A stretch of 63,830 bases of DNA, filler included, from Reclinomonas americana ATCC 50394 (Eukaryota): NCBI GenBank assembly GCA_048213135.1. It is 21 parts of 21 records of this genome, joined end to end, with 100 filler letters (N's around TTAATTAATTAA, not from the genome) between each part and the next. Parts side by side here need not be neighbours in the genome. Positions count along the whole stretch, not along the records: positions 31,311 to 41,858 come from AFZH01022281.1; 20 more parts are not named here. One strand, 5' to 3'. Shown in pieces: positions 17,715 to 62,501 of the stretch. The translations under genes and the position numbers were made by a program. Under the pieces are notes generated by a model. It ran no database searches. It was not told the origin of the DNA and was given only the letters and a program-made list of their open reading frames with translations. Within the stretch, counting starts at the first letter, position 1. Every line of letters begins with the position of its first letter.

Positions 17715-19386
17715 ATTCGATGCGTCGTACGCCTCCTCGCGCATCAGTCCGCTCCTCGAAGCTGCCCCGAGCTGCCGACCGGTGGTGCTCGACCGCTCCG
17801 TCCGCGGAGCGCAACTGCACGAGGTGGCCCGCGGGATCGCTGATCAAGCTGGTTGTCTGGCCGAGCGGGTCGACCACGCTGGTGGTGTTTCCGAGCGCGT
17901 CGTATTCGTACCGCCACTCGGCACCGCCCGGCTCGGCGACGAGTAGGGGAAGCCCCGCGGCGTTCGACCAGATGCGGGTGATTCCTCCGACGGCATCGGT
18001 CATGGAGTTCACCGTGCCGGTGAGCGCATCGTAGGTATAGGAGGTCGCCGCTCCGATTGGGTCGATCGTCCGGGTAAGGGAGCCTCCAGCGTCGTACTCG
18101 TAGCGCCACACGGCGCCGTCGGGGCCGGTCACCCTGACGGGTTGGTGGGCCTCGTCGTAGTCGATGGCGACACGTCCGCCGTCGGGGCGAATCACGGCCT
18201 TCAGGTTGCCGATCTCGTCGTACTCCCACCGGGTCACGTGACCGAACTCGTCCGTCTCGGCGGTCACCCGTCCGAAGCGGTCTCGCTCGGCAGCCGACGT
18301 GTGGCCAAGCGGATCGGTCTGGCCGATCACCCGCAGCTGCTCGTCGAGCTGGTAGCGCGTGACGGCACCGAGCGAGTCGGTAACCACGGTGACCCGGTTC
18401 TGGGTGTCGAAGGCCAACTGGGTACCGAGGTAGCCTTCGGTGCCATCGGCAAGCACGCAGCGGCCGGCGCCGTCATAGGTGTAGCGGTAGCTGCGTCCAT
18501 TGACGTCTACCCAGCCCGACAACCTGCCTTCGTCGTCGTAGTGAAATTTTTGGGGGGTGCCAACCGCGTCAACGAATTCCACGAGCGTGCCCGCCAGATC
18601 GTAGCGGTACTGGGCCAGCGGAACGGGCGAGTCGGCTACTCGCAGCGCCGTGACGAGGCCGTCGACGCTGTCGATCTCGACGCGATATCCGCCCGAGTGC
18701 TCGACCGACACGGGCATTCCGTCTCGGTAGTGGACGAGCGTCCAGTTCCCGGCACCATCGACGACAGCGCGGAGCCGCATGGTGGCCTCACCGCGTGCAC
18801 CGGTGAAGTAGCGCAATCGGTCCGACTGCGGGTCACCGACGATGAAGCCGTTCCGTACCCGGCGCAACGCGAGGTACGGCCCGACCTCGGGCAGGACTGA
18901 CTCGACGCCGCGCGGAAGCGGGTAGCGCAGGAGCGTACCGTCCTCCAAGGCCAAATGCAGCGCGTCTTCCTCCACCTCGATGCGCTCGTCGAGCGTTGAC
19001 GCCCAGCTGGGCCCGAAGAGGCGCCCCGCCCGATACGTCGACAGGTGGGTGCGGGAGATCACGAGCGGCAGAGCACCTGGTAGCGACACATCCTCCTGAT
19101 CGAGCATCACGGCGCCCGTTGCCACGTCGATCGGGTCGCCGCAATCGACCCGATCAATCCTCGGCGTGATGTGATCGAGTGGCTTGGGATTGCTGTCGGC
19201 GATGCGGGGTCCGTTGCCCGTCCCTCTAGACGAGACGTCCGGACGGTCGCTTCGATTCGCTCCGCGAAATGAGCCCATCGCTCCCCGGAATGAGGACTTG
19301 ACGGCCGGTCCGATCAGTTTGGCCGCGCCGAAGGTCAGCACGCCGGCGATGGCGATTCCCACATCTAGCCAGGAGCCCTCACCCAT
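17715..19386 (-). CDS. RHS/YD-repeat protein with DUF6531-like domain, partial at both ends
   Basis: GDPIDVATG, FGPSW, many YxYD..G repeats. Confidence 0.9.
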
Positions 19387-19486
19387 NNNNNNNNNNNNNN
19401 NNNNNNNNNNNNNNNNNNNNNNNNNNNNNNTTAATTAATTAANNNNNNNNNNNNNNNNNNNNNNNNNNNNNNNNNNNNNNNNNNNN

Positions 19487-20736
19487 ACATCACGGGGGCT
19501 CTGCAGGACGGCGAGCTGGGCGACGAACCACTTCGCCATGGCGCGTGCTCGAGCGGGCGCTCCCGCCACTCCCAAAACGCCCGACTCGGCGAGAGGGATC
19601 GTCGTGGGGACGTCGTGGATAATGGCGGGTAGCCTGCGGCGGTACTCGAGCGACTCGCGAAGGTCTTCGATGACGACTGCGCTCGGCAGGCTCGCGGTGC
19701 CGATGCGGAGCAATAGGTGGTCGTCGTCGGCGGGTCGTCTCTCCCACAACCGTGAGCCGGGCGCCGTGGCAATCGTCCACAGGTCGGCCGCGCTCGGGGC
19801 GGAGGCGAGGAGCTCGGCCCGCTCGAGAATGTGCCGCTCCTCGATGTCCGACTCGATGCGCTCAACGGTCGCGCGATGCTCGGCCATGTTCGCGGCGTGA
19901 CTGCGGCTCCCACGCCGTTTGGCGGAGAGCGCGTTCACCATCACCATGATCGGGGAGAGCAACGCGAGGGCGAGGAAGGCGAAGGTTCCGAAAATCAGGG
20001 CGGACACGACCCCTGCGACGAGCGGAAGCAGGGCGGCGAGCCAGGGTAGGGAGCTCCTGGCCTGGAAGGCCGGAGCTGCCGGGATTCGGAACATCGCGTC
20101 CGGTCCCGTGAATCGCAGCCGAGGAGGGCGGTTGAAATCGAGTGCTGTGCCGTCCTCGTCGGGTTCGAGAACGGCGTCGACCTCGGTCACACCCCGATGT
20201 TGAACCAGCGAGCCGCCGATGCGCAGGTCAGTGCCGCCCGGCCAGCGAGTGAATTCCTGGCCCAGGGCGTTCCGTTCAGTTCCGCTTGCACGAGCACGCT
20301 CGCCGGTCGCACGTGCACCCCCATCTGCAGGTCGACCAGCACAAGGAGAGCTTGCGGAGGAAGGGGGGAGAGCAGGGCGTCATTCGAGGCGGCACTTCCG
20401 ACGGAGTGTTGGCCGGGGCCGAGCCGAACGACGCTCCCGGCGCCCGGGCCGCTTGAGATTCCTAAGTCGACGAGCCCGGCGACGACATCGCTGCCAGGAG
20501 CCCCTCCTCTGCCCACTGTGAGCACCGCTCCTTGACGCACCCCGGCGGAGCGTAACGTCGCGTCGAGTTGGGCGACCGAGCCGTCTAGCGACACGGTCGC
20601 CTGCCCCGCAGCGACCGATGACGTGTCCACTCCCATACGGTGCAGCACATCCGCCAGGGGGTGTCTCGGGCTCCGCGTCGACGAGGAAGTCGCGGGAGCG
20701 GGCGCTCGCGTCGCGGAGCGTGAGGGCAATTCGCAT
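19487..20736 (-). CDS. N-terminal part of an FHA-containing FtsK/EccC-like type VII secretion ATPase; two frameshifts, 3' partial
   Basis: Three frames join: MRIALTL..LVDAEPETP / LADVL..SGPGAG..LGPG..VGS / FNRPPR..TM..LWERRPADDDHL.LRIG..WFVAQLAVLQSPRD. The ATPase domains are lost in the gap. Confidence 0.75.
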
Positions 20737-20813
20737 GGTCCTGATTTCGTGGGGGTCTGGTGTGACGGCCGCAGGGAACTCCGCCGTCGACAGGGCGGAG
20801 TTCCCTCCCGCTG

Positions 20814-21110
20814 CTACTTCTTGAGCGCGCTCGCGAGGTCCGAGTCGGTCTGCTGCAGCGCATCCGCCGCTTTCTTCAGGTAGTCGCTCATTCCTTCGAG
20901 TCCGGCGATCGTTTTCGTCGCGCCGTCGTTGAACTCCTGGTACGAGCTGCCGAAGGCGATGGAGGACTGGTCGGTGACGTACCCTCCCGACACAAGGCTG
21001 TCGACGAGGCTCTTCAGCCGGCCGAGCTGTGTGTTGATCTCCTGCTGCCCGCTCCGGAGCCTGGTCGCGGCATCCCGCATGTCCTCGAAGGTGACGTTCA
21101 AATTGGCCAT
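20814..21110 (-). CDS. WXG100/ESAT-6-like type VII secretion substrate
   Basis: 98 aa helical hairpin MANLNVTFEDMRDAA..LVSGGYVTDQSS..LQQTD; lies directly upstream of the FtsK-like gene. Confidence 0.85.
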   Translation of the reverse strand: MANLNVTFEDMRDAATRLRSGQQEINTQLGRLKSLVDSLVSGGYVTDQSSIAFGSSYQEFNDGATKTIAGLEGMSDYLKKAADALQQTDSDLASALKK

Positions 21111-30501: not shown

Positions 30502-31140
30502 CTACAGCTCGGGCTCGCGGTCTGCGTCATGCGCGTCGCGGTGCTCGTTTCGATAAAGCTCCGGAAACCGCTTCTTTCGGTAGTGGACGGATTTGCTCAG
30601 CGCCTTGCTAGCTTCAGTGGCTTCAGTGGCTTCAGAGGCTTCAGAGGCTTCAGAGGCGAGGCTATTTGCCTGTTTCGCGGGTGTCTTCTCCGCCACGCGG
30701 CGGTCCTCTCCTTCCGGCTCAGTGTCGTGATCGAGGTCGGGTAGCGGAGCGTGTGCGGGGGCCTCGGCGCCGGCAGAGACCGGCGCGGGAGATGCGCTGG
30801 GAGGCGGATCAGTGTCGCCAATTGCAGTTGCAGTTGCAGTTGCAGTTGCAGTTGCAGTTGCAGTTGCAGTTGCAGTTGCAGTTGCAGTTGCAGTTGCGGT
30901 TGGAGGTGTCCGCTCCTGAATACTCGATTCACTGCCATGCGCGGAGCCGGGTCGACTCGCGTGGGAGGCATCTGGCGCGAGTGGCTCGGCTCGGGTCTCA
31001 GCCGACTGCCGGGAAGCGGCGACGCGCGCTTCGTGCCAGCCGCGCTTCTCCTCGATCGTCATCTGGTCCCAGACCTGGCGAGCCGCAACGATAGCAGTGG
31101 CGCTCGTGCCCATCGCGACCATCCTCCCGAGGTCAGGCAC
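30502..31140 (-). CDS. Low-complexity ORF, possibly the C-terminal tail of the relaxase
   Basis: The frame continues upstream through the 61-bp contig overlap; contains (TA)n and (SEA/TEA)n tracts. Confidence 0.45.
   Translation of the reverse strand: MPDLGRMVAMGTSATAIVAARQVWDQMTIEEKRGWHEARVAASRQSAETRAEPLAPDASHASRPGSAHGSESSIQERTPPTATATATATATATATATATATATATAIGDTDPPPSASPAPVSAGAEAPAHAPLPDLDHDTEPEGEDRRVAEKTPAKQANSLASEASEASEATEATEASKALSKSVHYRKKRFPELYRNEHRDAHDADREPEL
30611..30655. repeat. 9-bp tandem repeat GCTTCAG(T/A)G x5
   Basis: Read directly. Confidence 0.9.
30822..30893. repeat. Hexamer tandem repeat (TTGCAG) x12
   Basis: Read directly; encodes Thr-Ala repeats on the minus strand. Confidence 0.95.
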
Positions 31141-31310: not shown

Positions 31311-32751
31311 ATACCGGGTCGACCGCTCGTCGAGAATGAGAACGGACAGGGGGTCGACAGCGTCCGTTGAGGCGCTTTCGTTGCGGTCGACGTCGTCGGT
31401 GCGCTGGCGCGTCGAAGACCGGCGCCGAGATAGCGGACTGCGCTTCGCGCTCGGCGCGAGCTGCGTTATCGAGTTCACGCCACAAGTTCATTACACGCAC
31501 CTGTGCGATGTGCGTTGCTGGCAGCCTGTCGATGACGTCGCCGATTGCTGCACGTTCCGCACGGGCTCGCTCGGCGATCCACTGATCGAGCTTTTCTTCC
31601 TCTTGCCGCAGTTCACGCTCCGCCGTCGCAAGCTCACCCATGCGACGCATGGCTGCCTCGAGATCGTCGGATGTTGGGACGTCGACGGGCTTTGGTGCGA
31701 GAGTGGCTCGTCTTGCAGGGCGATCGGGCCGCTTTTGCCCGCGGCGGTTCAGATTGATCGAGTGCGTCACGTTGGAGAAGTCATAGTGACTGCCGAGACT
31801 CGCGCCACGGACAGCCGTCGGCATGCTTTGCAGCTGATAGCTGAGGCGACTATCCGGCTCGCCTGCATCTGTTCTACTGCGCGTTGTGACCTCCACGCCA
31901 AGCTCCGCCATGACACCGATCCACGAATTCAGATCGACCGCGCGCGCGTCGTCCATCCCGGTTTCGACCGCATCGCGGACGATGTCGTGATTGGAACGCT
32001 TTCCACGTGCAGTCATGCGTCGATCTCGCTGATTTCGGGTTTCGCGCTTCGAGTCGGAGACAGACGGGAGCTGCTGCGGCCGCAGGCCGTACGAAGCCCC
32101 GTGCTCCAGGAGGAATCGATCGGCTCGTTCGCGCATCTTGTCGATGTTCGTGAGGTCACCAGCAAGCTTCTTGCCTGCTCGGTGCGCGCGGCCGCCGACA
32201 GTCATGTCGGCATAAAGAGTCGCATTCCGCGTTGTGTGCACGTGGAACATCCCACCGAGCCCTTCGGCTTGGCCCACGAAGGTTGCCTGCTCGCCCGGAT
32301 ACAACGCTCGATGGCGGGCGACGACGAATTGAAAAGCGTGAGTCACTTGCGTTGGGTCCTTCGGGTTGACCTCGTCGAGAGCGAAGGACGTTATCCAATG
32401 ATGAGCTTCCGCTTGCCGCACGCGCGCGCCGGGATGGCGAATGTGCGTTGCTGCCTCGCCCGGTTCCGGTTCCGCCCAATAGCCTCGTCCGTTCGGTCGC
32501 CGCCGTCTCACGTGCGTTGCAAACTCCCCGGGCTCGGGAAGCTTGTAGATCGATCGCGACGTTCGGACCGCGCCTTGCTTGTTGTGTCGACGGCGTGTGG
32601 CGGCGAACTCCTGTTCTGCTGTCTCCGGTCGGCAGTGCTGGCCGGAGATATGCAGCACTCTTTCCTTCACCGTTTGACCGGCTTTCGGAGTCACCGTGTA
32701 TCGAAGTAGGCGTGCAGCGACAGCCGTTGTGCCGACGTACTCGATGGGCAT
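31311..32751 (-). CDS. Relaxase/mobilization nuclease (MOBP-like)
   Basis: N-terminal LLRY, AHHWITSF (motif II), GGMFHVH (motif III), RGASLGSHY; coupled to the upstream mobC-like gene. Confidence 0.75.
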
Positions 32752-33527
32752 CAGAAGACTGCAGCGACTCTGTTGGCGAGCTTTGCATCGTTTTGCGCCT
32801 GGCGTGACATCGCGGCCGACATCTCGGTCAGCCGACGCTCGATAGCGCGCAGCGCGTCAGTGTCCACGGCGACACCGGCGGAAGCGAGTTTCACCAGCAG
32901 GCTCCAGTCGTTTCCGATCTTCTGTAGCTCCAGTGTCTGATCGGCGTATCGACGCGCGACGCTATCCAACGCTTCCCGGACTTCGTTCGCCAAGCCGGGA
33001 TCGACCTCAATCGTGACCGGTCGGCGAGACGCAAGACGCTTTCCTAGAGTTCGCTCGACCGCTTCCAGTGATGGGGAGTCGGACAGAGCTGCAGCCACGA
33101 TCTCCACGGCCTGACGCACTGCGTCTGAACGACTGCCACCGAGATGACGGCGCACTTCAGACAAAGCGGCAAGCTCCTCCTGGCGCATGCGCACCGCGAC
33201 AACCTCTTGCCCTACCGCCTTCGAAGCGTGAGCGCTGATGCCGGTCGCGTCGCGAGTGTTTGAGTCACTCGCTGGCAAGGCCGCAGACTTCTTCCCGCGT
33301 GTCCCGCGAGGTTCGGTGCCTGGACGCGCTCTTACTTCCCGTTCATTGCTCAACGTCAGCTCCAGTCTGCGAGGAGGGCGCAACTCGAACGCTGATTCAG
33401 CAAGCTTCGCCCGAGGTACCAGCCTACATGCAAGCAATCCGACCGTATACAGACCTCGCGGCCGGACTCGATAGGGCCGATTTTTGATGTGCGCTATCGA
33501 GATCGTGTGTCGCCTGACGTGGAGCAC
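32751..33527 (-). CDS. MobC-like relaxosome accessory protein (true start probably well downstream of 33527)
   Basis: RHH-like VAVRMRQEEL..SRSDAVRQA and ELQKIGND; stop overlaps the relaxase ATG. Confidence 0.6.
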   Translation of the reverse strand: MLHVRRHTISIAHIKNRPYRVRPRGLYTVGLLACRLVPRAKLAESAFELRPPRRLELTLSNEREVRARPGTEPRGTRGKKSAALPASDSNTRDATGISAHASKAVGQEVVAVRMRQEELAALSEVRRHLGGSRSDAVRQAVEIVAAALSDSPSLEAVERTLGKRLASRRPVTIEVDPGLANEVREALDSVARRYADQTLELQKIGNDWSLLVKLASAGVAVDTDALRAIERRLTEMSAAMSRQAQNDAKLANRVAAVF

Positions 33528-34091
33528 CGGTGGTGGCCTTTGAGTGAACTCATTCGGGATGTTGGAACGAGATGCTCTCGCGTAAAGCGCCGCCCGTGGC
33601 GATGCACGTCGCGACCGTGCATGTCGAGACGATGTGGGCCTGTCTCAACCATCCGCCCACGCGCAGCGCCCCGACCATTCTTGTCGGAATCGCGGTGAGC
33701 GGACACTGGGTGACACGCTGCAGGGCTACTACGGATGCCTCCCGCCACCTCTGTCGTGACACTTCCTTGGTCGGCGAGCCTGCTCTGGCCGATACGGATC
33801 TCGACGGGGAAGAGAGGAGGCGGTACTGCCGTCCCGCGCGATGCGGATACCGCTTCAGCAAAGTCGAATGCGGCGATACAGTCGGCTCGTCTGGAGACGC
33901 GTTCGGCTGCGCGGCCACCTCTGAACCTCTATCTCTGAAGAGAACGTGGGAGCAGTGCGCGTGGGCTGAACGCCACGCGCACTCGAAGAGATTGCTGGTG
34001 AGCGACCCGCGACCACAGGCGTCGTCGGCGTTGTTGCGCGGTACACGTGCATGGCGTCCGCACGACAGCCCTAGGCCATGCACGTGACGGC

Positions 34092-36566
34092 CTAGGCCGT
34101 ACCGCCGGTGGTCTTCTTCAGACGGTCCGCGAGGTGTCCGGGACGGAGCTTGTGACCTTCGAGGAGTCGGTCGATCTCGTTCGCGTCATGCCATCCGGTG
34201 GAGGCAAGGCCTTCACTAAACCCACGCACGTCGTGGATAAGCTGACCGAGCACCTGAGCGTCGATAATGCGCATCCCGGCGGGGGCGGTGGCGTCCTTAT
34301 AAAGCCTCCGGGAATGGTGGACCATCACCGGAGTGGCGACGTCCGTGGGGGAGTAGTGCTGTCCAAACCAAAGCATTGACTGCGCCAACTGTCCGGCGTC
34401 CCGTTTCGCGATGAACTCGCTGACAGCACCGCTCTTATCCTCAACTACCCAAAAGACGCCCGTGTCCAACATCCATAGATTGTCGGGGCCAGCGCCCAGT
34501 TCGCGTTCTGGTCGTTGTGAGTTCCAACCGAGGAAGTGCCCGAGCTCGAACATCGCCTCCTCGAACTCTTCCGTCGTGTCGGGGTCGAACGTGAGCGCGT
34601 CCAGAATGCTCTCTACACCCACCCGCATCGTCGCCGGCGTCCCATACTTCGGGGTCAACCGGTTGGCGATGGTGTCGGCCTGAGACCCGGCATAGGTCAA
34701 CGGCGTGTAGGTGACACCCGCCAACGGCTTGAGTACGTAGAAGTTTTTCCTGCGGGCTTCGGCGAGCATCGTCTGAGCGCGGGCGGGATCCACCTGGTCG
34801 ATGTACGCCGCGGCCTGCTCGAGCAATGCCCCCGCACGTCGGTCATCGGAGGTGGCGGAGGCGGCGTCATGGAGCAGCTGGCATGCTGCGGTGAGGTCAC
34901 CTCGGGTCGCTGCGTCAAACGCTTCCCTCTCTGCGACGGTGGACAGGTCCACGCGGGCGGGCTCGGGGACGAGCTTCCGCAGCGCGGACTTCGCGTATTT
35001 CACCCATCCTGGCTCTCGGGTAAGAGCGTCGTTCACCGTCTCGAGGATCTTCTCTAGCGGGGTGTTGTCGAGCCGTTTCGCCACCCGACGGGACGCCTGC
35101 AACTGAGCCCGGGTAGCGGGGCCAAAGCGGGACAACGTCTGCGGGTCAATCGTCAACCGCGCCAAGCGCCTGCCGAGAAGAAACACCACGCAGTGATCCT
35201 CGTTACTGCGTACACCTCGCCCCATCCCCTGTTCCAGCCGTTGCACCTGCCGGTCATCGATGGCAGCGACAGACGAGCTCATCAGCGCGTCCAATCGTTC
35301 GTCGCCGCTGAACGCTTGCGGGAGTCCATCCAATACCAGGATCCGACACGCGTCCTGAGGAAGGTCGATACCGTCGTACTTATTCGCGACCACAACCAGC
35401 CCGACGATGCTTCCCTTCATCTTCGGGATGAACTTCTCTAGGTCCGCGGCGGTCAGTTTGTGAGCTGTGTTCGGCCACGCGTCCATCGCCCGATTGCTGG
35501 GCACGATGACCAACGTGTTGTGAGTGCGGCTGAGTTCAACAACCGCGTCGCGCACGCTCTGCGCCTGAATGGACTCGTTGATTTCTTGCGGTGCGAGAAT
35601 CAGACGCTCCCCGATATCGCCGGCGGAGATCGGGTGGATGGGGGCGCCGACGAAACCGGGGTCGGCACCGAACTCGGATACGAGGACGCTGTCATCCGCG
35701 AGCGTCGCCGTGAGGAACACGCGATGCTCCGCTTCCGCGAAGCTGACCACTCGGCGTACCGGCGGGCACGGGGGCGTGATTGTCACAGCGGACCGCGTGA
35801 ACACTACCCTGCACAGCGGCAGGACATCACGGATGGCATCGTAGGAGAAGTCCAGTGGGTTCGCCGGTGTGTATGCGCGCAACGCTGCACGAAGGTCGTC
35901 GATCTTGCTGCGCACGGACCAGAACGGCACACGTGCGAATGCACTGCCACGATCATCCTTGATATCCAGAAGGATGTCCGCGGACTGCGTCGCCAACTCG
36001 ACGTCGAACAAGGCGAGCAGCACACCGTATGCATCGTTACTGCGTGGGATGGTCACAGAGAACTGCGAACGGACGGTGGCCAAGGCGGCGTGCGCGTCAT
36101 CGATGACGACGGCACCGATGGGGATGCGGTGCCCCGGGTCTCGCGACTCTGAGAAGATCGAGTGACCGTTGAACAGCTTCGCGGCATTGACGACGCCGAT
36201 AGCCTCGCCGGCTAGGTACGCCGCAGACTGTGGATCGGTTGTCACCTCGATCCCGAGGCGGGCTGCTTCGGCGGCGACCTGTGAGGCAAGGTACTTGTCC
36301 GGGGCGACGTACAGCGCGGGGAGCACACCATCGTTTAGGTAGCTCCGCAATATGACGAGACCGTCGATGGTCTTCCCACCGCCCGTATTGACCTTGATGA
36401 CGATGTCCTGATCACCGCGCTGCGCGTCCCAAGCGGTGAGGACTTGCGCCTGCACATCCCGCAAGTACCCGTACCCGGGAACTTTCGACGGCAACTGCTC
36501 GTACAATTCCCGTGGCTCCGTCTCCCTGCCGTCCTCAGCCTCACGAATCAGCTCGTCGTAGTCCAT
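34092..36566 (-). CDS. SF2 (DinG/Rad3-like) helicase with C-terminal PD-(D/E)xK nuclease; Hna-like defence protein
   Basis: YLRDVQ, NTGGGKT, DDAH, TAT, YDGIDL, QGMGRGVR, GPDNLW..VEDK. Confidence 0.8.
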   Translation of the reverse strand: MDYDELIREAEDGRETEPRELYEQLPSKVPGYGYLRDVQAQVLTAWDAQRGDQDIVIKVNTGGGKTIDGLVILRSYLNDGVLPALYVAPDKYLASQVAAEAARLGIEVTTDPQSAAYLAGEAIGVVNAAKLFNGHSIFSESRDPGHRIPIGAVVIDDAHAALATVRSQFSVTIPRSNDAYGVLLALFDVELATQSADILLDIKDDRGSAFARVPFWSVRSKIDDLRAALRAYTPANPLDFSYDAIRDVLPLCRVVFTRSAVTITPPCPPVRRVVSFAEAEHRVFLTATLADDSVLVSEFGADPGFVGAPIHPISAGDIGERLILAPQEINESIQAQSVRDAVVELSRTHNTLVIVPSNRAMDAWPNTAHKLTAADLEKFIPKMKGSIVGLVVVANKYDGIDLPQDACRILVLDGLPQAFSGDERLDALMSSSVAAIDDRQVQRLEQGMGRGVRSNEDHCVVFLLGRRLARLTIDPQTLSRFGPATRAQLQASRRVAKRLDNTPLEKILETVNDALTREPGWVKYAKSALRKLVPEPARVDLSTVAEREAFDAATRGDLTAACQLLHDAASATSDDRRAGALLEQAAAYIDQVDPARAQTMLAEARRKNFYVLKPLAGVTYTPLTYAGSQADTIANRLTPKYGTPATMRVGVESILDALTFDPDTTEEFEEAMFELGHFLGWNSQRPERELGAGPDNLWMLDTGVFWVVEDKSGAVSEFIAKRDAGQLAQSMLWFGQHYSPTDVATPVMVHHSRRLYKDATAPAGMRIIDAQVLGQLIHDVRGFSEGLASTGWHDANEIDRLLEGHKLRPGHLADRLKKTTGGTA

Positions 36567-36778
36567 GGCCCCTCCGCCCGTCCCGCAGCTTGTGCTGCGT
36601 CGCTATCTCATGCCGTGGGCCCGCGCAGGTGCGAAGGCCCAGCGGTTCACCACGGTCGCGCGCGGCGAGTGGTGGCGGCCGCCGCATCACCGTTCTCCCT
36701 GAATAGAGTGCAGACCGTGCCCAGCTCGGTCGTCACGGAGCGCGTATGAGAGCGAGTACAACCAAGCTCGCTCCTTCG

Positions 36779-37030
36779 TCAGCGTGTGTCCTTGCGGGGC
36801 GACTCGTTATTGCGGCCGGAGTCAGAGTCACGGAATTTTCCATCACTGCCCTGAATGCGGATATCTCCGCGGCCCCCGCCACTCTTATTGACGATCTCTC
36901 GCGCCCGATCAATGGCTTCCTTCTGCGTGTCGAAATGACCTGAGGAGCGTTGCGCGTCTTCCTTCTTCACGTCCCAGCCTCCCCGATCGTCGTTGGGTAC
37001 CACGTACCGATCTTCATCGTTCTTCGACAT
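36779..37030 (-). CDS. DUF2188 family protein (in-frame upstream ATG at 37105 would add a 25-aa peptide)
   Basis: YVVPN..GWDVK..FDTQKEAIDRAR..IRIQGSDGKFRD. Confidence 0.85.
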   Translation of the reverse strand: MSKNDEDRYVVPNDDRGGWDVKKEDAQRSSGHFDTQKEAIDRAREIVNKSGGGRGDIRIQGSDGKFRDSDSGRNNESPRKDTR

Positions 37031-37094
37031 GCGCTTTCCCTTCTTGTAGACCTTCTTCTTCCACTCGTTCGGTTCATCGGCCGGTGCAGGCTTC

Positions 37095-37613
37095 TCACTC
37101 GGCATGATCAGCACTGCTCTCGGTGCTTGAAGGGGTGGGGGGCAGGTGCTCCACCACCTGTTCACCCATAGAGCCGAGGAGGGCGATGACGATACTTAGC
37201 GCAAGGAAAATGAAGCCCACTCGGGTGACCCATCCGCGAATGCCGAGCCATTTCTCGTCCGCCTCGAGTATCTCGAGCTTTGTATCAAGCAGCTTGTACT
37301 TCGCGACTGCCGGCTCCATGTCGAGCACATGAGTTCGGATGGGTCGCAGATCCAGCGCGTCCCCTCTACGGGGGAAGACGACAATCACCCCTGCGACCGC
37401 AGCGAGGAAGCTCAGAACCAGGTTCAAGTTGATCGACCATGATGGGCCGTCGGCCTGAAGCGCGCCTATGATTCCGGCTGCGCCGATCAGGATGGTCGCG
37501 CGTTGTTCCATGGCGTTTGCACGCTGGCCCTGGGCCGCCACTTCGCGGTCGAGTTCGTCCGCAACAAGCTGAAGTTGCTCATCGCGACCGTCGAGGTCCG
37601 GTTGCTCGTCCAT
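37095..37613 (-). CDS. Small membrane protein with about 3 hydrophobic segments
   Basis: ATILIGAAGIIG, LVLSFLAAVAGVIVVFP, VGFIFLALSIVIALL; TAATG coupling to the upstream ORF. Confidence 0.7.
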   Translation of the reverse strand: MDEQPDLDGRDEQLQLVADELDREVAAQGQRANAMEQRATILIGAAGIIGALQADGPSWSINLNLVLSFLAAVAGVIVVFPRRGDALDLRPIRTHVLDMEPAVAKYKLLDTKLEILEADEKWLGIRGWVTRVGFIFLALSIVIALLGSMGEQVVEHLPPTPSSTESSADHAE

Positions 37614-37759
37614 TACTGCTCTGCGGGAGGACGGGGTCGCTCTGGCTTGGTCGGGGGCTTTTTGTTCCCAAATTTGCCGTTGTCTTGGGGAGGTTGCTTG
37701 CCCTTGTATACCGGCTTCTTCCACGCCTCATTTGGGCTGTCTGGGGTGGGCTTCGCCAT
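37613..37759 (-). CDS. 48-aa Pro/Lys-rich peptide
   Basis: GGGAG RBS, ATG, stop overlapping the next start; motif shared with the peptide at 37031-37105. Confidence 0.6.
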   Translation of the reverse strand: MAKPTPDSPNEAWKKPVYKGKQPPQDNGKFGNKKPPTKPERPRPPAEQ

Positions 37760-38145
37760 CGGAACTCCCTTGTTTGAAGTGAGTGTATCGCTCGCCGCTC
37801 CGTTGTCGAAGAATCGGGAGCGGGACACTGCTGTTTGGGCGTCCGTTGGCGAACCCGATCAATTCGCCGCTGCTGCGAACGTGACGATTGAGCTAGAGCC
37901 CTCCGACTCGGCTGCCAGACCTTTTCAGGGAAGGCTTGAGGACCGCCGTCCTCGCCGACACCGACCCGTAAGTTCGCGGTAGGGAACCGCATCGAGCGGC
38001 CTTGGCGCTCTTGACAGCGCCTGACGGCGAGGGGACACGTGACTCAACCGAGCTCATGTCGGATGTCGCCTGCAATCGCGCGCCCGGATTTCCGATGGCG
38101 GCATCCTCCCACCGACCTTCACTCAAGCGTAGCAAGCCAGTCGGA

Positions 38146-38481
38146 TCAGAATGCCGCCGCATCAGTGGGTGTCTCCAGCACTGAGGCCTCCGGTTCGTGC
38201 ACGAGATAAAGTCCGCTGCGGGCGTACGCCGTGTAGACGAGCGCGGCGATCCAGGACCGATGGATCGTAAACTCGTCACTACCGCGGTACTTGAGGACCA
38301 AGCTGGAATCGGCGTGTATCCACATCGTCGTGCGGCCCCCTCCGATGCTCGGGTCCTCCCTATAACTGAAGTCGAATTGCTCGCCTCGTCGTCACTTCGC
38401 CGTGATGGCAAGCTGCAGATGTTGCAGCGCTCTGTCCTCAACTTCAGTAGAAAAGTTGCTCTCGTAAACCAGCTTGCCCAC
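38146..38481 (-). pseudogene. Small conserved Microbacteriaceae-type protein interrupted by an in-frame TGA at 38392-38394
   Basis: Manual translation MGKLVYE..EVEDRALQHLQLAITAK*RRGEQF..GGGRTTMWIH..WIAAL..SGLYLVHEP; family recognised from memory. Confidence 0.65.
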
Positions 38482-38890
38482 CTCGGGGCTTCGCTTCACC
38501 GCATCGGCTTCGCTGGGTCTCCACCGGCTTCCGTTTAAGGGCCTAGGGCAACGTACCACCGAGGCTTGCGCAGGCCCGCCTGCACCGTAAGGGCCAAGCG
38601 TGGGCGGCTCGAAGTCAACGCCACTGATGAGGGCGGTCCCGACAGTTCTGGGGAACCCTCCGGGGACCACCCCCCCCGGTTTTGCCGGGGACATCACCTG
38701 CCCGAAGACCGCGCTTCCTGCGAGCTAGGCTCAACCTAGCCCCGAGGACGCCTAGCCTGCCAATCCCCCTTGGGATGTTCGAGCCAGTGGCTGACTGAGT
38801 GTTCGGAGCGGGGCACCCGGCCTTTTGCCTGCTGAACGAGTAGGCGAGGGTCCTGGGCATCGATAAGAGCTCAGAACCCCTTCGTCTCGC

Positions 38891-39199
38891 CTACGATGAG
38901 GGCCGTGTGAATACCCCATTCAGGCGTTCTCGCAGAAGAGCAATCCTCTCGGATTCATCAAAGTCTCCGTCTATCGCCGAGACACTGAGCCTCCGGTACA
39001 GATGCTCGATTACGTCGTCGCGATTCTGACTGCGCCGAGCCTCGAGTCGCTCCTTCAGGCTCTGCGCTCGTCGAGCCGCCTCAAGGTAGCGCTCCTTTTC
39101 CGACTTGACCTGTCTGCGCTTCGCCGGTTCTGGTCCCGCCACCGCGGGTGTTGGGGTCAGGCCGTCTGATGGGGTCTGCGCCTGCTCCCACGGATTCAT
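38891..39199 (-). CDS. Hypothetical coiled-coil protein
   Basis: GAGGAG RBS; co-oriented with the xis-like gene. Confidence 0.55.
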   Translation of the reverse strand: MNPWEQAQTPSDGLTPTPAVAGPEPAKRRQVKSEKERYLEAARRAQSLKERLEARRSQNRDDVIEHLYRRLSVSAIDGDFDESERIALLRERLNGVFTRPSS

Positions 39200-39337
39200 G
39201 CGCTCATCTCCTCAGTGGTGCTGACGTGCTGTTGAGCAAGGAGCCAGGCATCGACGTTTCGCGGAATACAGCGTGGCGCTCGGGCTTCGAGAGGCGAGCT
39301 GTCGCGGGCGAGACGACTCTTTGTTATCACCACGATC

Positions 39338-39637
39338 TCACTCACCACCCAGGGCGGTCGCGAAGACAGCGAGAATCAGAGAGCGCTGCTCGGGACGGAA
39401 CGGCGGCGCCTTGGCGACCATTCGCTCTACCCAGTCCTCCAAACTGGAGTTTGACACGCTGACAGGCTGCGGAGCAGCAAAAGTGTCTAGGTCATCAGGC
39501 GTAACGAAGAGGCGGCCTTTGATCTTGACTGCGGCTAGGCCGCCTGCCTTGATATGCCGGCGAAGTGTGGACAGGCCGTAGCCGCTGCGCTCCGCGGCTT
39601 CAGCGATTTCGATGAGGTTTGATGTCGCGATTGACAT
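39338..39637 (-). CDS. Excisionase-like HTH protein / candidate recombination directionality factor
   Basis: IAEAAERSGYGLSTLRRHIKAGGLAAVKI.GRLFV; near the recombinase. Confidence 0.75.
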   Translation of the reverse strand: MSIATSNLIEIAEAAERSGYGLSTLRRHIKAGGLAAVKIKGRLFVTPDDLDTFAAPQPVSVSNSSLEDWVERMVAKAPPFRPEQRSLILAVFATALGGE

Positions 39638-39707
39638 TCAATGCTCCTATGGGAAGAGGAGCACAACGTTCGATTCTTTGTCTGGAGCTCGTATGTTCTG
39701 GATCAGT

Positions 39708-39814
39708 CGTCAGCCAAACGGTCTGGTCCGCACCCTCGGGAGGGTCTTATGAGTGTTGTGAAGTTGTGGGCTCATTTTTCTGTACCAGGCGTCAGCCAAA
39801 CGTTCTGGTCCGCA
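39708..39814. repeat. 25-bp direct repeat CGTCAGCCAAACG(G/T)TCTGGTCCGCA x2 (39708-39732, 39790-39814)
   Basis: 24/25 identical; upstream of the xis-like gene. Confidence 0.85.
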
Positions 39815-40198
39815 TCTTGTTGTGCACTCGGGGATGACCAAGCTTGATCACTATATAGATCACCACTGACATCGCTGGGGCACGTGCGATCACGAGTGAT
39901 GACCGCAGGTCAGTTCTCCCGTGGGAGACTCCGTCGTGGCTGGAGATGTCGCCTCGAAGGACTGCCGGCTAGGGTAGTGGCTGGCGAAGAACATAACGGC
40001 GCCACAGGTGTCTAGGCCACTCCGACGCGGGAGCTAGGTCCGACGATCGGATCCCGTTCCCGCACCACTCAGCGGCCGTGGTGCTACATTCCGGAGCTTT
40101 TGTCAAGATCGCGACACCCTTCCGCGAGCCGCCGTTCCGGCGCCGAGATAATGCAGAGCCCCTCATCGCGCTACCGGGAATGAGCCCACCGAGCGGTG

Positions 40199-41731
40199 TC
40201 ACCGCCAGAGCGGTTCGACCCTCTCGTGATTGACGCCCTTGCGACCCTTCCACCCCTTGCCGACGCGGTTCACCACGGGCCACACGACAGCTCTAATCAC
40301 CCGTCTCCTATCTGCTAGGTCGAGACCGTCCCAAGCCATGCTGATTGCTCCACCAGATAGCAGCGTTGCAACGAACGGGTCCACGTCTGACAGGCGTCCG
40401 AGCCGCTGCCTGGCAGCAGTGATAAGGGGCAGCACTCGGGCTTCCTGGTCCACGATTAGTTCGAACCGCCGGTTCTCAGCGGCTTGCTGTCGGACTGCAT
40501 CCAGATACGACTCGTACTCGCCGATCTCGGCAGTGAGCGCTTCGCGCGTAGCTCGAGCTTCGTCGGTCTGGTCGCCGAGAGAAGAGATGAACTCCTGACT
40601 GTCCAGGCGTTTGAATAAAAGTGCAATCACGATCTCATCCAGCATCGTCTCCTGCATGCTGACGTGGAACCCACTCTTCCCGTCTGGTCCGCGGCGACCG
40701 GGCACACCGCTACACACGTAGGTCTTGTATGTGTCACGCGGTAGAGCCTTGCCGTTCTCATCGAGCTTGCGCGATCCCCGGTTCTGCTTTCCTACGCGAA
40801 GGGGAGCGCCGCAGACACCACACAGGGCGATGCCGGACAGGAGGTGCCTGGCCGGCCAGTCGTTCGTTCGTCTGCGAGCCGCCGGCGACATGATTCCCTG
40901 TAGCCGTTGCCAGATGTCGAGGTCAATCAGCGGTGGCCAGATTGCATCGCCAACAATTTTCCCACGGTACTCGCGCTTGCCCGCGTACGCGGGCGTCGTC
41001 AGCATCTGCTTCACGGCTGGGGGAGTCCAGCCCATGTTCTCGCGGTGCGCAACCCGTACGGGACGCCGTGGAGCAATGCCTCGCAGATTGAAGTCGCGCG
41101 CAATCGCATAGAACGTGTCGCCCTCTAGGACTCGACGCGCAGCTTCTTTGACGACGGGAGCCTGCTCCGGGTGAGGCTCAACTCGGATCAACGCTCGAGT
41201 CTGATCGTCGTAGACCCGCCGGTACCCGTAGATGTTCTTACCGTGCGGCTTACCCCTCTCGGCGGCTGCGCGGACGTCTCGGCGGATACGCTCAGACGTC
41301 TTATCTGACTCATACTCAGCGTCGACGGCGTCTTCAAGCAGGCTCCGCCGATCTCGTGCATTGCTCGGGTCGTACAAGCGGCCGTGGGTCGTGACCCAGA
41401 TGCGCACTTCGCGTGCTTTGCATAGGTCAACCAGGTCTACCCACTCACCCACTCGCCGCGAACCACGGCTTGACTCCCAGATCGCGAGGACGTCGGCGGC
41501 GAACTCATCAGCCTCGAGGTCGGCGATCAGTCGCTTGAAGTCCTCGCGCGCTTTGGTGGCATACCTACTGGCGCTACGATCTGTGTCACGGTACGGGCGA
41601 GCGGGGTGCAGTCGCCACCCCTGCCGCTGGATTGCTTGCACGTTCTCATCGTGCTGCTGGTCGGGGCTTTTTCCCGTCCCCTGCCTGTCGCGCGACACAC
41701 GCAGATACTCGCGCACGGTCAACGATGTCAT
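40199..41731 (-). CDS. Large serine recombinase (integrase)
   Basis: YLRVS catalytic Ser, WESSRGSR, YGY recombinase domain, LLSGIALCGVCG zinc ribbon; GGAGG RBS. Confidence 0.95.
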   Translation of the reverse strand: MTSLTVREYLRVSRDRQGTGKSPDQQHDENVQAIQRQGWRLHPARPYRDTDRSASRYATKAREDFKRLIADLEADEFAADVLAIWESSRGSRRVGEWVDLVDLCKAREVRIWVTTHGRLYDPSNARDRRSLLEDAVDAEYESDKTSERIRRDVRAAAERGKPHGKNIYGYRRVYDDQTRALIRVEPHPEQAPVVKEAARRVLEGDTFYAIARDFNLRGIAPRRPVRVAHRENMGWTPPAVKQMLTTPAYAGKREYRGKIVGDAIWPPLIDLDIWQRLQGIMSPAARRRTNDWPARHLLSGIALCGVCGAPLRVGKQNRGSRKLDENGKALPRDTYKTYVCSGVPGRRGPDGKSGFHVSMQETMLDEIVIALLFKRLDSQEFISSLGDQTDEARATREALTAEIGEYESYLDAVRQQAAENRRFELIVDQEARVLPLITAARQRLGRLSDVDPFVATLLSGGAISMAWDGLDLADRRRVIRAVVWPVVNRVGKGWKGRKGVNHERVEPLWR

Positions 41732-41754
41732 TGCCACCTCCAAACTAAACTATA

Positions 41755-42409
41755 TCTGGCGCGAACTGCGCGATCGTCGTCGGTGCCGTGTTCTGGCTGA
41801 CCGCCCTGTGCGGCGGCGGACGGATGCTGCGCGTCGTGCTGGCCGCGACGGCTTTGGCNNNNNNNNNNNNNNNNNNNNNNNNNNNNNNNNNNNNNNNNNN
41901 NNTTAATTAATTAANNNNNNNNNNNNNNNNNNNNNNNNNNNNNNNNNNNNNNNNNNNNGCGTCGGCGGGCCTGCGGGGCGTCCGTGGGGTCAGCGGTCTG
42001 GCGAGTGCTGTGGCCGCTGCGAGACTCTGCGGCCTTCCCGCCCGGCAACGACGCGAGCGTGGTGATCGACTTCGCCGGCGGAGAGGTGCCCCGCTCCCTG
42101 TTCCTCGGAGACCTCTCGGCCGAGCCGCAACGCATGCTGATGCGCTCGGTGCGGCTCGGCGCATACACCGTGGTGAAGGTCGCGCATCACGGCAGCGCGG
42201 ATCAGGATGCCGGACTGTACGACGCGGCGCAGGCGACGGCGGCGATCTTCAGCGCCGGAGCCGACAACGACTACGGCCACCCGCGGGAGGAGACGCTCGA
42301 CCTTCTCGGCGCAACCGGCGCACATCTCCTTCGTACCGATACCCAGGGGCGCATCCTGCTCGGCATCCGCGATGGCCGGCTGCAGGTCTGGACGGAACGG
42401 GACCGGTGA
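41755..42409 (+). CDS. comEC: ComEC/Rec2 competence protein, 3' portion (interrupted by the element; gap at 41859-41958)
   Basis: SGANCAIVVGAVFW.. begins at 41755; after the gap NDASVV, LGDL, KVAHHGS, NDYGHP, RTDTQG; holA-rpsT lie further downstream. Confidence 0.85.
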
Positions 42410-55913: not shown

Positions 55914-58661
55914 ACACTTCCGCCGCTTACAATTCCACTAACAGAAAGCGATGAGCCCACAATCGTGCCACCTGACAAGATCCCGCTTGTGGTAATACTG
56001 CCACCGCTGACAATGCCTACGGCGCTAATGTTGCTTGTGATACCAAGAGTATTCGTGACGATGACGGAGGCGCTGATCGAGCCAGAGGTAGTAAGGTCAG
56101 CCGCAGTCAATAGGCCGGCAGTGCTGATGGAACTACTCTGCAATGACCCCACAGTGGTCACGCTGCCACCTGCTATCAGACCGCCTGCATTAATCACACC
56201 GAATGTGCTGATGCTGCCGCCTTGCACCGAGCCCGCTGTCGTCACACTGCCGGCACTGATCAAACCAGACGAGCTGACGGTGCCAGACTGCATGCTGCCA
56301 ACCGTCGTCACACTGCCACCACTGATCAAGCCAGAGGAGCTCACAGTGCCACTCTGCATGCTGCCGACCGTCGTCACACTGCCACCGCTCATCAAACCAG
56401 ACGCGCTGACAGTGCCACTCTGCATGCTGCCAACCGACGTCACACTGCCACCGCTGATCAACCCAGATGAGCTGACGGTGCCAGACTGCATGCTGCCAGT
56501 CGACGTGAAGCTACCACCGCTCACGAGACCAAACGAGCTCACAGTGCCAGATTGCACACTGCTAACTGTCGTCACACTGCCGCCGCTGATCAATCCTGCA
56601 GAGCTCACAGTTCCAGACTGCATGCTGCCAGTCGACGTGAAGCTTCCGCTGCTAACAACGCCAAAGGAGCTTATAGTGCCAGACTGCACGCTGCCGACCG
56701 TCGTCACACTACCGCCGCTGATCAAGCCGAATGAGCTCACAGTGCCGGACTGCACGCTGCCAGTTGTCGTCACGCTGCCGCCGGTAATCAGACCACCAGC
56801 GCTAATCACACCGAGCGTGCTGATACTCACGCCCTGCAGCGAGCCCGCTGTCGTCACACTACCGCCGCTGATCAAGCCGAATGAGCTCACAGTGCCAGAC
56901 TGCATGCTGCCGACCGTCGTCACACTGCCACCACTGATCAAGCCGAACGAGCTGACAGTGCCAGACTGCACACTGCCAGTCGACGTGAAGCTACCACCGC
57001 TGATCAACCCGAATGAGCTGACGGTGCCACTCTGCATGCTGCCAACCGACGTCACACTGCCACCGCTGATCAACCCAGATGAGCTGACGGTGCCAGACTG
57101 CATGCTGCCAGTCGACGTGAAGCTACCACCGCTCACGAGACCAAACGAGCTCACAGTGCCAGATTGCACACTGCCAACTGTCGTCACACTGCCGCCGCTG
57201 ATCAATCCTGCAGAGCTCACAGTTCCAGACTGCATGCTGCCAGTAGACGTGAAGCTTCCGCTGCTAACAACGCCAAAGGAGCTTATAGTGCCAGACTGCA
57301 CGCTGCCGACCGTCGTCACACTACCGCCGCTGATCAAGCCAAATGAACTCACAGTGCCAGATTGCATGCTGCCGACCGTCGTCACGCTGCCCCCAGTAAT
57401 AAGACCACCAGCGTTAATCACACCGAGCGTGCTTATACTGCCACCCTGCAGCGTACCCGCTGTCGTCACACTACCGCCGCTGATCAAGCCGAATGAGCTG
57501 ACGGTGCCGGACTGCATGCTGCCGACCGTCGTCACACTGCCNNNNNNNNNNNNNNNNNNNNNNNNNNNNNNNNNNNNNNNNNNNNTTAATTAATTAANNN
57601 NNNNNNNNNNNNNNNNNNNNNNNNNNNNNNNNNNNNNNNNNGCCAGACTGCATGCTACCAACCGTCGTCACGCTGCCGCCGCTGATCAACCCGAATGAGC
57701 TCACAGTGCCAGACTGCACACTGCCGACCGTCGTCACGCTGCCACCACTGATCAAGCCAAACGAGCTGACAGTGCCTGACTGCACGCTGCCGACCGTCGT
57801 CACGCTGCCGCCGCTGATCAACCCGAATGAGCTGACGGTGCCAGACTGCATGCTGCCGACAGTCGTCACACTTCCGCCACTGACCAAACCAGACGAGCTG
57901 ACAGTGCCAGACTGCATGCTACCAACCGTCGTCACACTACCGCCGCTGATCAAGCCGGACGAGCTGACAGTGCCAGATTGCACACTGCCGACCGTCGTCA
58001 CGCTGCCACCACTGATCAAGCCAAACGAGCTGACAGTGCCAGACTGCACACTGCCGACCGTTGTCACGCTGCCGCCACTGATCAACCCGAATGAGCTGAC
58101 GGTGCCAGACTGCACACTGCCGACCGTTGTCACGCTGCCGCCGCTGATTACACCGAATGTGCTGACGGACCCGCTCAACAGCGATCCCACAGTCGTCACG
58201 CTGCCGCCACTAACGACTCCAAAGGTACTGACCGAGCCACTTTGCAGTGTTCCAGCCGTAGTGACGCTGCCACCGCTGATCAATCCAGCAGCACTGAGGT
58301 TACTGCTCAGCGCGAGGGTGTTTGTAAAAATGGTGGATGCACTGATCGACCCACTGGTGGAAATCGTGCCGCCGAACACCGTACCAGCCGTACTCATTGT
58401 ACCGCCCTGTATGCTACCGACAGCAGTAAGGCTGCCGCCACTAATCATACCCGCAGAACTGATCGATCCGCCACGGATGCTGCCGAGAGTGGTCACGCTA
58501 CCACCGGTAATAATGCCTAGTGCACTCACAGAGCCGGCCTGGACTACGCCCGCGGTCGACAAGGACCCACCGCTGACTGTCCCGATTGCACTCACCGTCG
58601 CTGCACGCACGGCACCGCCCGTTGTCACACTGCCGGCGCTGATGACCCCTGACACGCTGAC
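55914..58661 (-). CDS. Gly/Ser/Thr-rich 22-aa tandem-repeat protein fragments (two contigs)
   Basis: Unit SGTVSSFGLISGGSVTTVGS(M/V)Q; open frame throughout both contigs. Confidence 0.7.
55914..58661. repeat. 66-bp coding tandem repeat with a 612-bp higher-order duplication
   Basis: The sequence at 56461 recurs nearly identically at 57073. Confidence 0.9.
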
Positions 58662-58761
58662 NNNNNNNNNNNNNNNNNNNNNNNNNNNNNNNNNNNNNNN
58701 NNNNNTTAATTAATTAANNNNNNNNNNNNNNNNNNNNNNNNNNNNNNNNNNNNNNNNNNNN

Positions 58762-61700: not shown

Positions 61701-62501
61701 GGCACTCGTGTCGCTGGGAATCAGCAGGCGCTGCGATCCGTCAATGACCAGCGAGAGGGAGCTGGTGTCAGAACTTGTGCCTATCAAAGTGTGAGACACC
61801 ACGCGCACACGCAAAGGAATGGTGAGAAAGGAAAAAAACACAACCTCCAGATGCAAACAAGCCAGTGTCGCCGTCCTTGGCAAACGCAAAGCCCACATCG
61901 CCGCTGTTGCCACCAGAGAGACCCTTGGCCGCTCGTACACCTACGCCGCGCAAGTAAACAACTGATTCACAATACGGCTCTCTCTTCCTCGCACGCACAA
62001 ACCTCCAGCCGAATGCAGCGTGGCCTCCGGCGCCAGCGCCAGAGCACTGCCGACTCCAAGACGACCAGTGCCTGTCGAACTCAAAATCATCTGGTTGGCG
62101 CCAAACACGATGCCATTCTCGAACGCATTGCCTGCGTGAATTATATCGCAGGGTGTTAACAACAGAGGCATCAGTATGGTTGCTGCAAGGGGGCATTCGA
62201 AGCAATTAGGCGTCGACGAACCGGGATTGAGAGACAAAAGACCAAGAGCGTCTTGTGTCTGCAACACCAGTCGAGCTGGTGTGCCCAACGACAGTCGAGT
62301 TGATGCAATCGAGACATCGCCACTGATGGACACGGCGCCGCCAACAGGAGGCACTTGAATGCGAGAGACGCCATCGACTTGCAGAACCAGGGAGCTCCCA
62401 GAGACGCCAGTGCCTGCCAAGCGCACAGATGAGTGGAGAGCGGAGGAGTGGGGGAGGGAGGGAGGGAGGGAGGGAGGGAGGGAGGGAGGGAGCACCTGTG
62501 G
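58762..62501 (-). CDS. Intron-containing eukaryotic gene fragments encoding virus/phage fibre-like repeats (two contigs)
   Basis: Recurrent G(L/V)G(I/V)GT.AP...LHV.GGVRA..G and (F/Y)SF..DGDTG(L/M)F motifs; frames restored by removing GT-AG introns. Confidence 0.75.
60840..60916 (-). other. Spliceosomal intron (clearest example); others at 60547-60624, 61781-61844, 61941-62002, 62132-62221, 62414-62495, and less certain ones near 58887-58938 and 61437-61512
   Basis: GTGCGT...CTCAC...TTTTAG; splicing gives GDSGLYMTA-AASVGDLVM. Confidence 0.85.

Follow-up and report, generated by a model that had tools for sequence, protein, structure and literature searches.

Membrane effectors of the PycTM type belong to the pJV1-spdB3 three-helix (3TM) family (10.64898/2026.08.12.744502), and in Pycsar and PucsarTM systems a PycC or PucC cyclase is paired with PycTM or PucTM (PF18967). 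According to the same work, EcPucTM is a ligand-free hexamer with a 15.2-Å channel that acts in abortive infection; canonical PycTM is activated by its ligand (PMC13712596), and the SpdB3 protein of pSVH1 is required for plasmid spreading, interacts with itself and is toxic in E. coli (PMC4447253). For Panoptes (OptS/OptE; mCpol/CARF-TM) the proposed logic is that a membrane effector is silenced by a constantly made ligand and that defence is set off when this ligand disappears (PMC13712596). A second domain of relevance here, DUF2188, has been linked to defence in a report citing Burroughs and Aravind 2020 (10.1101/2022.04.27.489752), likened to the protein-binding N-terminal domain of HicB (PMC13621843), and found as a putative effector in a Thoeris island (10.64898/2025.12.03.692087). 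Finally, a DUF6338 operon of Pseudomonas stutzeri co-encodes three Pro-rich small proteins detected by proteomics and not assigned a function (PMC10433244).

Layout and surroundings of the cassette

The window, that is, the whole 63,830-nucleotide stretch of joined contig parts analysed here, contains a three-gene cassette in which a short Pro/Lys-rich peptide gene is coupled to the gene of a 172-aa membrane protein, itself overlapped by an ORF that joins a second copy of the peptide motif to DUF2188 (Table 1). The initial annotation had described a 48-aa ORF with a ribosome-binding site and TAATG coupling, the membrane protein ORF, and an overlapping ATG read without a stop into DUF2188; all three were recovered, the last matching Pfam PF09954 at E 1e-19, as were the synonymous codon differences reported between the two copies (CCA AAT/CCG AAC, GTA/GTC and GGC/GGA). 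Its description of the cassette as unannotated needs qualifying, since some homologous peptides are already in databases as hypothetical proteins. An NCBIfam search of the cassette matched nothing, and DNA contig pieces identical to parts of the stretch, one of them spanning the TAATG junction, may share the window's own source.

Table 1. Features of the cassette and the piece that holds it, in window positions
Feature	Position	Strand	Remarks
Sigma-70-like promoter candidate, 5′ of ORF1	37782..37809	-	weak; 1 site where chance predicts 0.6
ORF1, 48-aa Pro/Lys-rich free peptide	37613..37759	-	RBS AAGGGAG at 37765-37771; TAATG coupling to membrane gene
Motif copy 1, WKKPVYK, in ORF1	37703..37723	-	
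172-aa membrane protein (P0002), distant PycTM/pJV1-SpdB3 homologue by sequence, without YFG segment	37095..37613	-	
Motif-DUF2188 fusion ORF, 108 aa	36779..37105	-	11-nt overlap with the 3′ end of the membrane gene
Motif copy 2, WKKKVYK, in frame with DUF2188	37043..37063	-	
Possible short DUF2188 without motif, internal ATG 37030	36779..37030	-	SD-like AAGGGA at 37037-37042
Hna-family helicase/nuclease, neighbour outside cassette	34092..36566	-	PADLOC PDC-S28
N-free piece holding cassette	31311..41858	.	relaxase-like, ribbon-helix-helix, Hna, cassette, excisionase-type HTH, large serine recombinase

The SD-like sequence ahead of the internal ATG is formed by the KKG codons that follow motif copy 2, and this internal start may yield a DUF2188 protein lacking the motif. 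Exactly two sites in the whole window match the motif pattern defined below. Judged from the window sequence by itself, the repeat is of modest strength: it scores 58 in alignment, and the best unrelated one of 6372 segments scores 44. It is the homologous loci that are decisive for the reality of the motif.

The N-free piece is likely an integrative mobile element because ORFs of relaxase-like, ribbon-helix-helix, excisionase-type HTH and large serine recombinase type occur together in it, the first two matching below their Pfam cut-offs. Paired 44-base N runs recur every few kilobases in the window and suggest joined pieces, so that gene order across them is unreliable. Named homologues of the 3TM protein come from Plantibacter, Agromyces, Cryobacterium and Clavibacter, and from these a Microbacteriaceae host for the cassette is likely. 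The Hna-family helicase lies 212 nt downstream of the cassette and is homologous over its full length to the Hna monomer structure 10UJ (PMC13381803; E 1.5e-103, residues 6-815). The initial annotation was thus right about the Hna-like neighbour, but the connection that it implied is not supported: Hna is found in 0 of 79 other loci (flanks of 70 to about 5000 bases), for which reason we rejected a functional link and regard the gene as an incidental neighbour in a defence hotspot.

Elsewhere in the window, an Rhs/DUF6531 ORF near a WXG100 gene (17716-21110) likely marks a type VII secretion polymorphic-toxin cluster broken by N runs; a repetitive ORF at 57652-58659 has no Pfam match and falls in a region (56001-62000) of lower GC and strong AT skew; and a hexanucleotide tandem repeat at 30750-30900 is read as (TA)n, (QL)n and (CS)n by ORFs that overlap there.

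Conservation of the motif and its fusion to DUF2188

For 33 close protein homologues of the membrane protein, 17 distinct loci were fetched (L015 duplicates L001 and was dropped), which with the window gives a set of 18. Among these loci, which are kin and whose counts are not independent, the pattern W[KTGR][KR][PQEK][VI][YQEFHK]K, written from the same close-locus data and hence after inspection, precedes the membrane gene in 17 of 18 and follows it in 13 of the 16 whose 3′ side can be read. The motif, which the initial annotation expected in homologue flanks, stands beside the gene at every close locus (18/18), and it occurs nowhere else in the 213,690 translated codons of these loci. The tryptophan and the final lysine are invariant in all 30 copies. 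Of the longer consensus first proposed, KPxP..PNE(A)WKKxVYK(K)GK, the core W-x-[KR]-x-[VI]-x-K is kept while the KPxP, PNE and KGK parts differ among homologues. Synonymous changes dominate in the free and fused copies (pS 0.79 and 0.87 vs pN 0.19 and 0.21, respectively), a comparison that is partly circular because the pattern picked the copies. A further locus of the same 3TM clade, L054, which was held out of pattern building, carries a variant motif upstream. A peptide profile run on 251 genomes returned four matches at E≤0.007, all at membrane-gene loci and all among the sequences behind the profile, along with four weaker ones at E 0.02-0.045; an Atlas search with the peptide gave nothing usable.

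Of the 16 close loci readable downstream of the membrane gene, 12 have the motif there in one frame with DUF2188, and this frame is retained over nine spacings of 26-56 aa and across two DUF2188 subtypes; the database protein P0186 is another such fusion. In eight of the 12 fusions an internal start is present, mostly with an SD-like sequence, and in the other four (L006, L009, L014 and L018) the usual internal position has no start codon, so that there the fusion appears, from its reading frame, to be obligate. The window's own DUF2188 scores well above the PF09954 threshold (70.8-72.3 bits vs a cut-off of 22) and matches the PADLOC candidate PDC-S16 at E 2.5e-20.

DUF2188 is the sole recurring partner: it follows the membrane gene in 12 of 16 close loci, also precedes it in L009 and L013, and lies near one of 39 distant loci; its adjacency takes three arrangements, those of the window, of L009/L013 and of L021. 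The motif is kept where DUF2188 is not adjacent (L002, L011, L016, L017 and L054), and it is absent from all 11 DUF2188 loci that lie apart from the 3TM gene, among them L084, which is closely related to the fused type; the motif is thus not a property of DUF2188 as such. Fused forms do not make up a single clade in a DUF2188 tree (21 rows, four dropped in parsing; p-AU 0.0005), which, being unrooted, is compatible with gain as well as with loss of the fusion. Described defence-associated DUF2188 operons (PDC-S16; CapH/CapP-linked) resemble the cassette in placing a DUF2188 gene in a defence-rich mobile setting; the motif extension and the 3TM coupling are mentioned for neither in the available text, and the CapH/CapP pair is absent from the window locus.

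Among the flanking genes of the close loci are integrases, resolvases, a phage tail gene, ParB, CHAT, IetS, Fic, a methyltransferase, an M78 peptidase and Rhs, and no fixed partner besides DUF2188 recurs (73 and 42 of 115 called ORFs scanned). Within the part of the flanks covered by the Pfam scan (73 of 115 called ORFs), no modifying enzyme, peptidase or exporter of RiPP or quorum-sensing type recurs. L016 and L017 lie among housekeeping genes and not in defence islands.

A distant PycTM relative with clade-matched peptides

The membrane protein P0002 has no match in Pfam, PADLOC or NCBIfam, and none of the 129 members of its wide family reaches the Pfam gathering threshold of PF18967. PycTM is nevertheless the commonest weak match in that family (6/129 members, best E 7.5e-4), and the top Atlas match of P0002 is a PycTM-named cluster (0.93) of whose members 29% carry PF18967, the clusters matched at that score having 20-29% PF18967. 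An hhalign comparison of the wide alignment with 14 canonical PF18967 proteins, four of which adjoin PycC, gives 96.3% (E 1.8e-9 over 135 columns; the close clade by itself reaches 85.9%) and aligns the D-x-K-A, P-R and pre-TM3 basic positions. The YFG-type segment that follows the conserved PR in 10 of 14 canonical rows falls in a gap of the alignment and is present in only 1 of 121 family rows. The monomer model of P0002 is a confidently predicted helical bundle (pLDDT 84.5; helices 11-52, 58-79, 90-97 and 101-154), with hydropathy peaks of 1.1, 2.4 and 2.3; fold searches with it and a PDB sequence search returned generic helical bundles only, an outcome that is no argument for a new fold.

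A cyclase profile built from four PycC matches finds nothing in the window and nothing beside any full-length family gene, its sole match outside the controls being at L050, where the 3TM match is partial. Genome-wide, PDLC02367 is found in none of five genomes with close members and PDLC02369/PF00211 in one, weakly and 56 kb away, leaving four of the five with no cyclase by three profiles. By sequence comparison the 172-aa protein is thus a distant PycTM homologue, but, because no cyclase lies in the window or adjoins any full-length member, it is not part of a Pycsar system. The homologous, predicted three-helix protein and the mobile, defence-rich DNA are what the cassette shares with Pycsar/PucsarTM; it differs in the absence of a nearby cyclase, the missing YFG segment and its position below the Pfam cut-off. 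The peptide-regulated membrane effector of the initial annotation accordingly gains a PycTM-type homologue of the effector, albeit a distant one, and sheds its implied tie to the Hna gene.

The 3TM family comprises 472 clusters at 50% identity (E≤0.001). Of 401 genomes in the family to which the nearest genome belongs, 10 have members by a narrow profile; a wide one finds them in 36 of 301 genomes of that genome's genus and in 31 of 401 of its class, the class tally counting two unpublished genomes that have no bearing on any other result. The nearest genome itself (G001) has no 3TM homologue, and none was found in viral contigs, plasmids or phage records at the sensitivities used.

We asked how often a coupled peptide accompanies distant members (E≤1e-9), using polarity and rule thresholds that were chosen after inspection and applied identically to controls. 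Under a strict rule, which requires a polar ORF of 25-70 aa starting within -20..+25 of the 3TM stop, 19 of 38 distant loci qualify vs 1 of 203 control genes, and that single control gene precedes a motif peptide; neither the weak 3TM matches (0/10) nor the canonical PF18967 loci (0/15) show such pairing, a further difference from Pycsar/PucsarTM. A wider rule gives 25/37 vs 21/197, and at least two peptides in 8/37 vs 2/197. Depending on the rule, about a third to a half of the distant loci have no coupled peptide, and together with the 10 weak matches this means that some family members may function without one.

In a quick 54-row tree, peptide type follows 3TM clade, with examples such as F-x-x-L-T-H-G/S, G-R-P-D/N-Y/F and F-x-R-x-T-E-G from three separate clades, and the clade-specific peptides, which in distant clades sit 3′ of the 3TM gene, are often present in two or three copies per locus. 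Four database proteins are natural in-frame 3TM-peptide read-throughs, P0063 being a natural 3TM-peptide fusion. Clade-matched peptides are consistent with cognate pairing, though short of proof, as kin share traits. A test for complementary charge of the peptide core and the cytoplasmic parts of the 3TM protein (rho -0.40, p 0.015, n 36) was set aside because anchors were placed by eye, several segments were mis-parsed and the loci are kin. We found no description of a peptide-paired PycTM-like protein in the literature, although bioRxiv supplements, subscription papers or Burroughs and Aravind 2020 might mention one; we therefore regard the module as real and apparently undescribed, the kind of effector being known and the mode of control possibly new.

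Possible modes of action

The account that we favour, and in which we place about equal belief and doubt, is that a toxic pore is kept in check by its cognate peptide and that, once this peptide is lost in a phage infection, the pore opens and the cell is stopped. The 172-aa protein would oligomerise as a pore, like EcPucTM, and the two conserved motif copies would likely bind this cyclase-less 3TM protein, likely holding the predicted oligomer shut. Through translational coupling, peptide would be supplied with every pore subunit; it would be cytoplasmic, no signal sequence being evident, and the motif may dock at the cytoplasmic face, possibly giving in trans the strand that canonical PycTM has as its YFG segment. 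The disordered free peptide would be lost upon host shut-off, cleavage or sequestration, the DUF2188-fused copy would serve as an added folded sensing module, and the internal start might set the ratio of tagged to untagged DUF2188. We favour an inhibitor over an activator because coupled translation would make the peptide constantly, and a constant activator would be harmful.

This logic resembles that proposed for Panoptes, from which the cassette would differ in using a ribosomal peptide where Panoptes has a nucleotide ligand and an effector of another family. Type II toxin-antitoxin systems, with HicAB the relevant case for the DUF2188 fold, offer a comparable coupled small-gene operon (here with conserved TAATG and 11-nt overlaps) and a disordered candidate antitoxin, but in the cassette the place of the toxin would fall to a membrane protein and that of the antitoxin to a short motif that occurs twice, and neither a DNA-binding autoregulator nor HicA is encoded. 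The co-encoded Pro-rich small proteins of the P. stutzeri operon are a looser parallel, DUF6338 being a different protein family; a DUF6338 gene of L013, likewise followed by a coupled polar ORF, echoes that operon.

Constant production also bears on the idea that the peptide is a latent activating ligand which replaces the Pycsar cyclic nucleotide and opens the pore once cleaved, modified or freed from DUF2188 in infection. Canonical PycTM is, after all, ligand-activated (PMC13712596), the peptide might complete the active form in a family that lacks the YFG segment, and many motifs end in K/H/E-G/S amid disordered flanks, much as cleavage sites do; we nonetheless think this rather unlikely, as the flanks hold no conserved protease or modifying enzyme and a free activator made by constitutive coupled translation would be risky. 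A restrained toxin could alternatively serve the mobile element itself, through addiction, exclusion or spreading, and not phage defence, given the integrases, resolvases, phage tail gene and ParB often found as neighbours, the likely integrative element around the window copy, and the part that SpdB3 namesakes play in intramycelial plasmid spreading (PMC4447253). This too is unlikely in our view: no conserved transfer gene stands beside the cassette, DUF2188, with its reported defence link (10.1101/2022.04.27.489752), adjoins it in 12 of 16 close loci, and CHAT, IetS, Fic, methyltransferase, M78 peptidase and Hna are among the recurring nearby genes of defence type.

The remaining possibilities concern what the motif is for. 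Its target might be DUF2188, which resembles a protein-binding domain (PMC13621843) and adjoins the membrane gene in three arrangements, or else a protein of the host or of a phage, and not the 3TM protein. Alternatively, the small ORFs might have no role beyond a cis effect on translation, since ribosomes can be affected by Pro/Lys-rich ORFs. The persistence of the motif without adjacent DUF2188 and its absence from the 11 solitary DUF2188 loci argue against the former, peptides that lie downstream in distant clades cannot be leaders, and we judge the whole alternative improbable. Export of the motif as a signalling tag through the 3TM oligomer acting as a peptide channel, with DUF2188 as tagged cargo, would suit its N-terminal place in both products, its portability (onto DUF2188, and onto a Cys-rich domain in L058) and the 15-Å width of a related pore (10.64898/2026.08.12.744502); with no energising component, receptor or peptidase conserved, and a folded DUF2188 unlikely to pass such a pore, it seems to us highly improbable. 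That the second copy is a functionless relic, left by duplication of the 5′ region or by insertion of DUF2188 into a downstream peptide gene, with only the short DUF2188 made, we consider scarcely credible: the internal start with SD-like sequence in 8 of 12 fusions and the solitary, motif-free L084 are what it has in its favour, while frame and motif are held over nine spacings and in both DUF2188 subtypes, synonymous change prevails, and an internal start is missing from 4 of 12 fusions.

Should the peptide hold the pore shut, the cassette would be a peptide-controlled defence switch on a mobile element, and peptide control would extend the types of ligand governing immune membrane effectors. 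More tentatively, and with doubt outweighing belief, we suggest that an actinobacterial Pycsar-type pore branch (the 472 clusters) swapped nucleotide signalling for lock-and-key peptides that are subfamily-specific and portable onto sensors such as DUF2188; if true, one pore would be wired to many phage triggers, amounting to a peptide-gated immune channel. The 2026 PucTM structure is ligand-free, and the small, exchangeable parts of a branch that has no cyclase but has peptides matched to its clades would allow gating to be probed directly. Genes of this class, at less than 70 aa, are often missed in annotation, and with the motif fusion and the 3TM pairing DUF2188 gains a first testable role.

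Several arrangements in the fetched loci are recorded here as observations in their own right. Two to three tandem small ORFs with the same clade-specific motif lie 3′ of the 3TM gene in L080, L065, L066, L069, L067, L070, L072 and L073, and in L065, L066 and L069 each successive start overlaps the preceding stop and the motif is repeated at the N-terminus. The coupled peptides 3′ of the 3TM gene in L059 and L064 have two conserved cysteines (C-P-P-G...G-N-C), unlike those of other clades, and in L058 (1955-2218) an N-terminus resembling the family peptides is continued by a Cys-rich (CxC...CxxC) domain that Pfam does not recognise, possibly a second peptide-sensor fusion. In L105 and L109 a 237-aa ORF, which on inspection looks more like an E2-like protein than a cyclase, lies upstream of a canonical PF18967 gene and is coupled to it. 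In L006 (2273-2806) a 177-aa membrane protein is coupled directly before a motif peptide, 3′ of an Rhs toxin-immunity pair, and in L013 a 65-aa coupled polar ORF starts 14 nt past the stop of a DUF6338 gene (8-577), a case by which peptide pairing may reach other membrane-protein families.
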